From the IMG/VR virus record IMGVR_UViG_2579779149_000003: a DNA stretch of 22,140 bases, one strand, 5' to 3'. Positions within the stretch are counted from its first letter, which is position 1; each line of letters starts with the position of its first letter. The translations under genes were made by a program, and so were the position numbers. The notes below the pieces were generated by a model. That model searched no databases. It was not told the DNA's origin and was given only the letters and a program-made list of their open reading frames with translations. Of the stretch, positions 11,921 to 18,688 are shown in pieces. The stretch is from a virus (Duplodnaviria > Heunggongvirae > Uroviricota > Caudoviricetes).

Positions 11921-11995
<75 letters not shown>

Positions 11996-11998
11996 ATA

Positions 11999-12074
<76 letters not shown>

Positions 12075-12076
12075 AC

Positions 12077-12153
12077 TGGACCGCCACCGGGGACTCGAAC
12101 CTCGCACACTCAACTTAAAGGGTTGACGCTCTTTCCTGATGAGCTAGTGGCGG
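12077..12153 (-). tRNA. tRNA-like gene with atypical anticodon loop CCUUUAA (anticodon UUU by position, C at position 33); identity uncertain
   Basis: Acceptor CCGCCAC/GUGGCGG, D-arm GCUC...GAGC, anticodon stem UCAAC/GUUGA, T-arm CGAGG-UUCGAGU-CCCCG (one mismatch), encoded CCA. Packed 2 nt and 1 nt from neighbouring tRNAs. Confidence 0.45.
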
Positions 12154-12154
12154 T

Positions 12155-12230
12155 TGGTGGCCCTTGCTGGATTTGAACCAGCGACCTGGCGATTATGAGT
12201 CGCTCGCTCTCACCACTGAGCTAAAGGGCC
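12155..12230 (-). tRNA. ileZ: tRNA with anticodon CAU (IleX/IleZ-like tRNA-Ile2, or Met)
   Basis: Reverse complement GGCCCUUUAGCUCAGUGGUGAGAGCGAGCGACUCAUAAUCGCCAGGUCGCUGGUUCAAAUCCAGCAAGGGCCACCA closely resembles E. coli tRNA-Ile2 (ileX) and the ileZ gene of lambdoid prophages; T-arm GCUGG/CCAGC is perfect. Confidence 0.8.
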
Positions 12231-16372: not shown

Positions 16373-16765
16373 CTACTGCCCTGTTTTAACGAAGTTTTTA
16401 AAGGAAACAACTGCCTGATAGGGGTTTGGTTGACAGCCAAACATATTATCGCAAAAAGGCTTGATGAAAATTCTTGAGGATCCATCTTCATTTGGCATTT
16501 TACTCACTTGATAAGCGAGGAATGGACTATTTGGAGAGGGATTATAAGTGGAAATTAGCGTGTCTGTCGCCGTTTGAATTTTCCATGAGGAATTATTAGC
16601 CAACCAGAATTGCGCTCGTTTCCAATAAAAGTCACATTGCTTTTCATCATTACATGTTAGTGGCTTCATTGCTTCTGCTTTCAACGCTGGATCGACCTTT
16701 GCTGCACACCCTCCCAACATTACTGTTGCAATCATTACACCTGCGACTAAAACAAGTTTCTTCAT
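16373..16765 (-). CDS. Putative lipoprotein (130 aa), AT-rich moron
   Basis: MKKLVLVAGVMIATVMLGGCAAK... has a signal peptide with canonical lipobox LGGC; flanked by terminator-like hairpins sharing the 13-mer CGCCGAAGCGGGT. No family recognised. Confidence 0.7.
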   Translation of the reverse strand: MKKLVLVAGVMIATVMLGGCAAKVDPALKAEAMKPLTCNDEKQCDFYWKRAQFWLANNSSWKIQTATDTLISTYNPSPNSPFLAYQVSKMPNEDGSSRIFIKPFCDNMFGCQPNPYQAVVSFKNFVKTGQ

Positions 16766-16908: not shown

Positions 16909-17064
16909 TTACTCCTCAGGTTCGTAAGCTGTGAAGACAGCGACCTCCGTCTGGCCGGTTCGGATTCGTACCTCGCAGAGGTCTTTCCTCGTTACCAGTG
17001 CCGTCACAATGACGGTTAAACAGATGACGATCAGGGCGATTAACATCGCCTTTTGCTGCTTCAT
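16909..17064 (-). CDS. hokD: Hok-family type I toxin (HokD/RelF-like, 51 aa)
   Basis: From the internal ATG at 17064: MKQQKAMLIALIVICLTVIVTALVTRKDLCEVRIRTGQTEVAVFTAYEPEE, recognised as HokD/RelF. The in-frame upstream extension (ORF from 17121) is probably leader sequence. Confidence 0.85.
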   Translation of the reverse strand: MKQQKAMLIALIVICLTVIVTALVTRKDLCEVRIRTGQTEVAVFTAYEPEE

Positions 17065-17275
17065 AGCCTGCTTCTCCTTGCCTTTCGGCACGTAAGAGGC
17101 TAACCTAGATTTGCCGTTCATAGATTGAGCCTCAGATTAATGTTAAGCGTCTTGCAGGACGCGTAATGTTAACTGGGGCTTTTCTCTATCTGCCTTTGGT
17201 GTTCATGCCTGAGACAGATAGCCTCAAGCACCCGCAGCCATTCTACTTAACTCCCGTTACCTCGCCAATATAAAA

Positions 17276-17365
17276 TCAATCAGAAAGGCGATCCATAAGA
17301 ACAACAGCAAGACAATAAATTGCCATTACAGCTGCAATAGCCAGCGCACATTTGAGAACCAGCAC
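17276..17365 (-). CDS. Candidate small hydrophobic peptide (29 codons, GTG start) with consensus SD; type-I-toxin-like
   Basis: Minus strand reads AGGAGG-ttgtc-GTG CTG GTT CTC AAA TGT ... GAT TGA, giving (M)LVLKCALAIAAVMAIYCLAVVLMDRLSD. It is in a different frame from the rejected 107-aa ORF 17280..17603. Confidence 0.3.
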   Translation of the reverse strand: MLVLKCALAIAAVMAIYCLAVVLMDRLSD

Positions 17366-17650
17366 GACAACCTCCTGTATTGGACGTACACCAGTCCTGA
17401 TAAATATGAGGCTGTCTCATCATTGATTCAATATAACTATTGGGTATAGTTTCTGTGATTTTGTTCTGTAGAAATGGAACACAACAACCAGTCACCACCA
17501 GCACTTCTTTAAATACGCCAAGTCCGACGCAAGCTAACCTTCTAGTCCGCTTTGGGCGAAGACCGGACGTTCGATAGGTGTGAACTAGTAACTTTAAAAA
17601 CATTTAATTACCAGTAAAAAAACAAGAATATACTATCACTTTTCCAATTT

Positions 17651-18688
17651 TTAATTACCCTTATCAATTTTAAGAAATACATTTCCAATCTCATCAGAAT
17701 AATCCTGTATTATTTTTGAAATGACGGCATGATCAATGGTTGGTTTTAAAAATAAAAGTGTCACAGTAATCTGCATCAAACTAATAGCAGTAGCATGGGC
17801 TGGATCAGCCATTCCTGAATCACTTTGCCCGACCAATAATATATCATCACCAGTTTCACAGAGACCAAGCCTATTTCTCATTGCCTTGGAACCGGTGTGT
17901 ACATTCTGACTCGCCCACTTATAATAAGGGCGCATGTGTTCTAACTGAACATCTTTCTCAATAGCTCCAAACCCCACTTTATTATGGTTAGGGAAAATAT
18001 AAGATGCCCAGCCATAATTATCTGCATATTTTTTGCCATATTTTTTTATTAATATATCAAATTGAACTTTACACTCAGCTATTTCTTCAATAGTTGGACC
18101 TTTTGCTTCTAACCGGTGCTCGTACTTTTTGTGTTCCAACATTCCAGTATATGAATCAACCACTTCATGGTAGTAAAAGCGCTCAGCACACTCTTTTCCA
18201 TGCTTTGCTATAAACATAGCTGTGGCCGCTACCTCATGAAGTGCTCGCCATCTCGCTTGGGCAGCATCTGCAAATCCATTCTTTAAGAGACACAAAATTT
18301 CGTTGGCGATGTGGCAAGCTCTTGCGTGATGCCGAACGACTAAATCAAAAACCACATCCTCTTCAGAGGCAGCTTGTGGTCTATAAGAACGATTGAACTC
18401 TTCACCGGACTCCGTGCATATCACTATAAGTGTTTCGAGCAAATCAAAAGCCTCTGCCCATCTTGAAATATTTCTCTCAACAAATTCATCACAAAGAGAA
18501 CGATGTTCTCTAAGCATTGCATTGGCCGAGCCAATAAGAGATTTTTTAACGACAATGGCTATTTTGGGAATTAGGTTATTAATTTCTTTTTCGATATCAG
18601 CGTCACCAGATAAATCAAGTCTCTCTTTTAAAAGGCTGTCTATGTGCTCAAGCAAAATATTATGAAAAGTATCCATGTCATATCTCAA
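17651..18688 (-). CDS. Hypothetical 345-aa protein, AT-rich orphan gene (candidate defence or abortive-infection gene)
   Basis: Long ORF MRYDMDTFHNILLEHIDSLLKERLDLSGDADIEKEINNLIPK... with K/I/N/E-rich composition, flanked by AT-rich intergenic regions. No family recognised. Confidence 0.7.
   Translation of the reverse strand: MRYDMDTFHNILLEHIDSLLKERLDLSGDADIEKEINNLIPKIAIVVKKSLIGSANAMLREHRSLCDEFVERNISRWAEAFDLLETLIVICTESGEEFNRSYRPQAASEEDVVFDLVVRHHARACHIANEILCLLKNGFADAAQARWRALHEVAATAMFIAKHGKECAERFYYHEVVDSYTGMLEHKKYEHRLEAKGPTIEEIAECKVQFDILIKKYGKKYADNYGWASYIFPNHNKVGFGAIEKDVQLEHMRPYYKWASQNVHTGSKAMRNRLGLCETGDDILLVGQSDSGMADPAHATAISLMQITVTLLFLKPTIDHAVISKIIQDYSDEIGNVFLKIDKGN

Follow-up and report, generated by a model that had tools for sequence, protein, structure and literature searches.

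A candidate accessory gene for a 29-residue membrane peptide upstream of hok in Escherichia lambdoid prophages

Type I toxins such as Hok/Gef, Ldr, Ibs, TisB, ShoB, DinQ and ZorO are short hydrophobic single-helix peptides encoded on mobile DNA, and long structured 5' UTRs are characteristic of the class. A second group of comparable size are AcrZ, CydX/AppX, KdpF, MgtS and MgrB, small proteins of E. coli and Salmonella that act as modulators in the inner membrane. Phage morons, for example gp15 of HK97, are autonomous accessory cassettes of lambdoid phages. The small open reading frame (ORF) described here resembles each of these in part. With type I toxins it shares the short hydrophobic single-helix product and the location on mobile DNA. 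However, it matches no toxin HMM, no antisense or divergent sRNA was detected for it, its peptide is neutral to acidic, and its leader is short and apparently open. The likeness to the inner-membrane modulators comprises a length of about 30 aa, one membrane-spanning helix with invariant residues, an ordinary promoter (predicted for the small ORF) combined with a Shine-Dalgarno (SD) sequence, and translation in growing cells. The small ORF differs from them in showing no sequence similarity and no Pfam match, in lacking the CydX/AppX signature MWYxxW, and in being borne by prophages and plasmids without an adjoining partner gene. Like a moron it is a small insert between phage operon genes, with its own predicted promoter, a patchy distribution and variable neighbours; unlike for morons, a terminator of its own was not found.

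The sequence analysed here (22,140 nt, in the following termed the window) is a Qin-like lambdoid prophage, which we read on its minus strand. The small ORF lies between a DUF5677 gene and the hok/sok locus. The features referred to in the text are the following, ordered from upstream to downstream:

17651-18688: DUF5677 gene, upstream of the small ORF
17280-17603, minus strand: Cys-rich ORF of 107 aa, overlapping the small ORF in another frame and judged spurious
17431-17426, minus strand: predicted -35 box TTGAAT, 17 nt upstream of the -10 box; TTGAAG or TTGAGT in other alleles
17408-17403, minus strand: predicted -10 box CATATT of the sigma-70 type, identical in six independent allele groups
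17388-17383, minus strand: TACGTC box, invariant in seven aligned alleles and located within the predicted 5' UTR
17376-17371, minus strand: SD sequence AGGAGG, followed by the 5-nt spacer TTGTC and then the GTG of the small ORF
17365-17276, minus strand: small ORF of 29 codons, with GTG at 17365-17363 followed by 28 codons and TGA at 17278-17276; product (M)LVLKCALAIAAVMAIYCLAVVLMDRLSD
17268-17240, minus strand: hok promoter TTGGCG-N17-TAGAAT, a consensus match
17233-17059, minus strand: hok mRNA leader and sok antisense region (Rfam RF01794, 110 bits against a gathering threshold of 59)
17121-16909, minus strand: mok/hok frame of 70 aa, with Hok proper starting at the ATG at 17064; the RefSeq orthologue is hokD and homologues carry PF01848

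The position of the small ORF, its GTG start, the AGGAGG sequence, the 5-nt spacer and the number of 29 codons, all given in the initial annotation, were verified on the sequence, and the minus strand across SD and ORF reads ...ACAGGAGGTTGTCGTGCTGGTT.... Hok had been placed about 210 nt downstream on the same strand; its ATG at 17064 is 212 nt away. The stretch had also been described as AT-rich, which is true only mildly, the local GC content being 41-46%. As to the peptide, the proposed single hydrophobic helix with a short charged tail was borne out: residues 6-24 have a mean Kyte-Doolittle value of 2.7, which is sufficient for one membrane-spanning helix and makes the 29-aa product a small, hydrophobic, membrane-targeted peptide of the kind seen in the type I toxin class. 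The peptide is not cationic. Its net charge is neutral to acidic and its C-terminal tail, DRLSD, is acidic. Across alleles the residues K5, A9, I10, I16, Y17, C18, L19 and L23 are invariant. The variable positions showed no significant helical periodicity along the helix (p = 0.18), so that no conserved binding face is evident.

By its length alone the small ORF is unremarkable, as the surrounding 1.8 kb contain 31 ORFs of at least 20 aa. The arrangement AGGAGG-N4-8-RTG is rare: the window contains 5 such sites, vs 1.3 expected. What raises the small ORF above chance is the comparative evidence, namely the distribution of changes over the codon positions and the pairwise dN/dS values.

For this comparison 134 loci carrying the region were collapsed into 26 gapless ORF haplotypes, and parsimony changes were counted on a neighbour-joining tree. 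In the frame of the small ORF, codon positions 1, 2 and 3 had changed 17, 8 and 39 times, respectively. Of these changes 38 are synonymous and 26 non-synonymous, none creates a stop codon, and dN/dS is about 0.24. The other five frames showed dN/dS values of 0.37-1.63, and stop codons were acquired in four of the five. The majority of the loci came from searches that presupposed part of the peptide; the half of the ORF free of this conditioning (codons 2-15; 28 synonymous vs 13 non-synonymous changes, dN/dS 0.19) and the copies derived from blastn agree. Deep alleles (pWR501, L129, L143, L144 and L147), which were found by blastn, tblastn or HMM search, were compared pairwise. Here dS ranged from 0.4 to 1.5 vs 0.07 to 0.37 for dN, with a dN/dS of 0.1-0.4 in every pair. 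The L129 allele, for example, differs from the window allele by 10 synonymous vs 4 non-synonymous changes. For the close pair formed by the window and the HannyBb/BL21 allele dN/dS was 0.85, a value derived from seven differences only.

Changes in length are also in frame: L147 carries a two-codon duplication and L143 one additional codon. The start codon is either GTG or ATG, and its distance from the GGAG core of the SD sequence is fixed; ATG is used in the Shigella allele and in L144, with the SD distance unchanged. The GGAG core is retained in all diverged intact alleles aligned as well as in L143, L144 and L147. SD variants are GGGGG in the L010/L139 variant and AGAAG in L027, one of the L129-type copies. 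Only two copies are frameshifted (L062 and L095), and in both the SD sequence is mutated to AGAAAG and the -10 box is altered too.

These substitution patterns indicate that purifying selection at the protein level acts on the frame of the small ORF only. Conservation of the peptide frame across homologous regions had been named in the initial annotation as a check, and synonymous-site patterns favouring another frame as a refutation; the former was found, the latter was not, since the other five frames all fared worse. The earlier view of a functional-looking SD sequence in front of a genuine coding frame is likewise supported. The overlapping Cys-rich frame of 107 aa, which had been suspected to be spurious, was rejected as a gene: its changes are 8 synonymous vs 53 non-synonymous (dN/dS about 1.6), and homology is lost upstream, where two thirds of the frame correspond to unrelated sequence in other alleles. 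Within the small ORF we noticed that the 3' half (window 17276-17320) has undergone fewer synonymous changes than the 5' half (10 vs 28) at similar numbers of sites. An overlapping element, the upstream region of the hok promoter or recombination could account for this deficit.

Upstream of the SD sequence, six allele groups share TTGA(A/G)(T/G) and CATATT at constant spacing around a strongly different 17-nt spacer:

Window allele: -35 TTGAAT, spacer caatgatgagacagcct, -10 CATATT
HannyBb/REL606 allele: -35 TTGAAG, spacer taacgagcacgaagaca, -10 CATATT
L129 allele: -35 TTGAAG, spacer tagtgagtacaaagcca, -10 CATATT
L128 allele: -35 TTGAAG, spacer caagaaataggttgcta, -10 CATATT
pWR501 allele: -35 TTGAGT, spacer cagttgagatacaaata, -10 CATATT
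L147 allele: -35 TTGAAG, spacer ccgggaaggggcggcta, -10 CATATT

Taken as a phylogenetic footprint, this arrangement suggests a promoter from which transcription would start near 17396, the resulting leader measuring about 30 nt. The homology between the groups starts at the -35 box of the small ORF, which fits a cassette boundary. Another minus-strand promoter match at 17459-17430 was discarded, as it is not conserved in other alleles, and was replaced by TTGAAT-N17-CATATT. The TACGTC box is altered in some further alleles, e.g. to TACATA in L147. Window-type alleles have in common a block of some 160 nt ahead of the predicted promoter (window 17440-17600, minus strand); it contains the hairpin GTCCG-N14-CGGAC and is conserved irrespective of the gene located further upstream.

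In some intact copies the promoter footprint is absent or altered, namely in BL21, L050, L143 and a palindrome variant. The latter was found in four viral contigs (L019, L018, L036 and L021), in which the -35 box TTGAAT is replaced at about window 17415-17434 by the perfect palindrome TCTCATCAATGATGAGA; this should result in a weaker predicted promoter or a new binding site. In BL21(DE3) (L136, 1204-1563) the annotated DUF977 gene extends 40 nt into the small ORF. Here a deletion fused the DUF977 gene to the TACGTC box, exactly at which the homology begins, and removed the small ORF's own promoter. Despite this promoter loss, initiation at the BL21 small ORF is still reported in the ribosome profiling entries of a published supplement (PMC11188072).

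We then determined how widely the region is distributed. A 241-nt query (17240-17480) had matches in 3,060 of 5,426 complete E. coli genomes, with at least 80% of the query covered in 1,729 of them. Carriers include BL21(DE3), REL606, UTI89, 55989 and Shigella virulence plasmids, and most copies are more than 90% identical. The peptide is furthermore encoded in four sequenced phages and in 143 plasmid records, mostly of the Shigella virulence plasmid. When one genome per species was scanned across bacteria, it was found in the representatives of E. coli, E. albertii and E. ruysiae and in one Shigella flexneri record, and additionally in three short contigs that were apparently mis-binned into unrelated MAGs. 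A word-indexed protein search and a HMMER profile search (1.84 billion representatives) returned only Escherichia/Shigella among the matches with a source name; the most distant peptide found is MLIIKGVLAIVIVVAIYCLVVTLWERLSD. In K-12 MG1655 (NC_000913.3; 975-1047 of L148) the stop codon of relE is separated from the ATG of hokD by 71 nt, and the small ORF, the hok leader and the hok promoter are missing. The lack of the gene in K-12 would explain why it is missing from small-protein catalogues based on this strain.

The small ORF had been called unannotated. This holds for RefSeq/PGAP, as the interval from DUF5677 to hokD is empty in the RefSeq annotation of every genome listed. It does not hold for NCBI nr/UniRef, where the exact peptide is found as "hypothetical protein" or "membrane protein", nor for the microprotein cluster Escherichia_98807. 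The latter derives from a survey of intergenic small ORFs of Enterobacteriaceae, in which retapamulin ribosome profiling data of BL21 were re-analysed (Fesenko et al. 2024, bioRxiv; PMC11188072). Table S4 of this survey lists ORF.63248 (NC_012971.2, 1591437-1591524, minus strand) with the sequence VLVLKCTLAIVAVMAIYCLVIVLMDHLSD. According to these entries the BL21 ORF belongs to the Entero67K set, cluster Escherichia_98807, with a dN/dS of 0.46, and shows 13 initiation-site reads and 38 ribosome-protected-fragment (RPF) reads at an RPF fraction of 0.90. The coordinates are exactly those of the small ORF which we located in BL21 (L136). The BL21(DE3) allele VLVLKCTLAIVAVMAIYCLVIVLMDHLSD aligns with the window ORF without gaps, 24 of the 29 residues being identical, and both share the position upstream of hokD. 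The BL21 ORF of cluster Escherichia_98807 is orthologous to the small ORF of the window. Ribosome profiling, which had been suggested as a check, therefore has a positive published result for the BL21 allele in the Table S4 entry. The signal is weak at 13 initiation reads, and the authors of PMC11188072 caution that low signals can be spurious translation. The main text mentions neither hok nor a prophage, the locus being one supplementary row among 67,297 clusters, and as far as available the supplementary tables contain no entry for the cluster on its promoter, context or function. A full-text literature search with the peptide sequence yielded no paper, the sole match coming via Table S4 of PMC11188072. 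As a predicted microprotein the peptide already has an entry in a bulk catalogue, which does not cover its anatomy, its contexts or a possible relation to hok.

As the hok promoter occupies 17268-17240, the stop codon of the small ORF is located only 8 nt before the hok -35 box. No terminator was predicted between this stop codon and the hok promoter; the sole predicted one lies inside the small ORF. We analysed the downstream context of 143 intact copies. In 119 the hok promoter or leader comes next, 19 are followed by a convergent DUF1971 gene without hok, 2 by other sequence and 3 by the end of the contig. The small ORF is retained in three different downstream contexts, and the link to hok is kept in alleles with saturated synonymous sites. 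A 901-nt query containing hok gave 12,768 matches vs 3,627 for the region with the small ORF. At three hok loci (L126, L127 and L142) the small ORF is truncated by inserted cargo and only its last 7-13 codons are left. The junctions inside the small ORF are located at about 1495-1525 in L126, 1500-1535 in L127 and 600-645 in L142, and among the cargo are queH, an alpha/beta hydrolase region and a SEC-C-domain protein. In other loci the same spot is occupied by DUF5677, by a TPR protein, by a HigB-like toxin together with an HTH protein, by ORF6N or by a restriction-modification pair. The insertion site upstream of hok looks like a hot spot for accessory or defence genes.

On the Shigella virulence plasmid pWR501 (L004, NC_002698.1, 1601-1790) we found an ATG-started small ORF, followed by a hok promoter that looks intact (TTGGCG-N18-TAGAAT) and by roughly 80 nt of hok leader sequence. 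This block is located about 290 nt upstream of the ATG of icsP (1981 in L004). The coding sequence of hok is gone, and the relic promoter therefore points into the regulatory region of icsP.

The existence of copies without hok and of hok loci with a truncated small ORF means that neither of the two requires the other. A role of the small ORF as a regulatory frame upstream of hok was also considered and rejected, because the hok promoter follows the stop codon of the small ORF and because the small ORF occurs without hok. The gene is dispensable, having been truncated several times by cargo and being missing from K-12.

Further observations concern the surroundings in the window. Here mok extends hok at the N-terminus in the same reading frame, and the two form a single 70-aa ORF (16909-17121, minus strand). 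On plasmid R1 mok overlaps hok in a different frame. Downstream of hok, at the position of rem in related prophages, a lipoprotein-like ORF of 130 aa (MKKLVLVAGVMIATVMLGGC...; 16373-16765, minus strand) was found, for which PADLOC gave no match. Four clustered tRNA genes (11924-12230, minus strand) are located between the antiterminator region and the lysis genes.

Because of its length and composition the peptide had initially been compared to type I toxins, with the remark that it matched none of the known ones. In agreement with this remark, scans of the peptide against Pfam, NCBIfam, PHROG and PADLOC yielded no family match. PF01848 (Hok/Gef) was not matched in a Pfam scan of three alleles at E-values up to 10. 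Ldr, Ibs, TisB, ShoB, DinQ, ZorO and Fst likewise gave no Pfam/NCBIfam match, and only unrelated helices (CoxIIa, ATP synthase subunit c) appeared below threshold. A degenerate duplicate of hok was dismissed on account of the missing HMM similarity and the different leader architecture.

We next considered the regulatory elements expected of a type I pair. The initial annotation had suggested a search for the promoter of a cis-antisense sRNA on the plus strand; a site was predicted at 17247-17276 and is not conserved in pINV, L129 and mEp460. No conserved plus-strand terminator was found near the small ORF, and Rfam detected only hok/sok over the locus. Searches for direct and inverted repeats, which would imply complementarity to a trans-acting sRNA, gave only matches of 11-14 nt at chance level. 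No conserved fold hiding the SD sequence was detected (RNAalifold covariation term -0.57 kcal/mol; single-sequence folds inconsistent with one another, z-scores -2.6 to +1.6). What we did find on the plus strand, just beyond the stop codon, is a weak -10-like box (TAAAAT, TGAAAT or TATAAT) in most alleles. It has no conserved -35 box, the key A at position 2 is often missing, and it coincides with the AT-rich stretch immediately upstream of the hok -35 box.

We regard it as probable, at roughly 60%, that the small ORF is a genuine translated gene encoding a 29-residue single-pass inner-membrane peptide, and that it constitutes an autonomous accessory cassette of Escherichia lambdoid prophages. 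The cassette is located in a variable region that is bordered by the replication genes and the hok/sok locus and, as predicted from its sequence, would be transcribed from its own moderate sigma-70 promoter TTGAAT-N17-CATATT; copies without this promoter may be transcribed via read-through from upstream phage genes. Since no terminator precedes hok, transcription probably continues into the hok region. The peptide would be inserted with Lys5 in the cytoplasm and the acidic DRLSD tail in the periplasm, and would act within the membrane through its eight invariant residues (K5 to L23). Most likely it would associate with itself or bind a membrane protein; a killer under tight repression seems less likely. 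An ordinary membrane-acting accessory peptide is therefore favoured over a classical type I toxin.

It is unlikely that the small ORF encodes the toxin of a new type I pair, which would damage the membrane, be repressed by an antisense or nearby sRNA and form a second module beside hok/sok. Size, hydrophobicity and charged tail suit this class, the linkage to hok/sok is tight and ancient (119 of 143 intact copies), and the prophage spot gathers toxin and defence-type cargo. We keep this possibility because the -10-like box just past the stop codon and the low synonymous change in the 3' half (10 vs 28) fit a hidden overlapping element. However, that box lacks a conserved -35 and no conserved plus-strand terminator accompanies it, no repeats imply a trans-acting sRNA, Rfam identifies hok/sok only, and the predicted 5' UTR is short and shows no conserved SD-hiding fold. 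The peptide moreover is not cationic and matches no type I toxin HMM, and ribosome initiation is reported in growing BL21 (Table S4 of PMC11188072).

Somewhat more doubtful still is a cooperation with hok/sok, in which Hok would be modulated by the peptide within the membrane, or expression of hok or sok would be tuned by transcription of the small ORF across the hok promoter. The 8-nt distance between stop codon and hok -35 box, the missing terminator and the linkage retained across very diverged alleles are in line with such a unit. Against it stand the intact copies without hok, among them the DUF1971-type L129 with 10 synonymous vs 4 other differences from the window allele, as well as the survival of the small gene on the Shigella plasmid after hok was lost. 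Conversely, many hok loci are devoid of the small ORF (12,768 vs 3,627 matches) or persist after cargo has truncated it. The least probable explanation is a non-functional ORF, its conservation resulting from DNA or RNA constraint near the hok promoter or from recent mobile-DNA ancestry, and its ribosome signal being noise. The identity of more than 90% among the majority of copies, the weak profiling signal, the frequent loss or truncation and the reduced synonymous change in the 3' half would be compatible with this. It is contradicted by the third-position bias and by dN/dS values of 0.1-0.4 in the frame of the small ORF alone, even at dS above 1. The in-frame indels, the switch between GTG and ATG at constant SD spacing, the joint decay of ORF, SD sequence and -10 box in the two disrupted copies, and the maintenance of the small ORF where the hok promoter is absent argue in the same direction.

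About a third of the complete E. coli genomes (1,729 of 5,426) carry a gene that is missed by standard annotation. It is a well-supported addition to the growing set of small membrane proteins, and it points to a possible functional partner of hok/sok, a locus that has been studied extensively. If the product is an ordinary accessory peptide, as we favour, the value of the finding lies mainly in the correction of the annotation. That the peptide is instead a new membrane toxin, either without an antitoxin or controlled by an sRNA, or a partner modulating Hok, appears improbable to us. If this were true, the hok/sok locus of Escherichia prophages would be a two-peptide membrane module, acting for example in abortive infection, and with the remnant upstream of icsP the Shigella virulence plasmid would possess an active gene. 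A toxic or Hok-related peptide would change the interpretation of prophage hok/sok loci.
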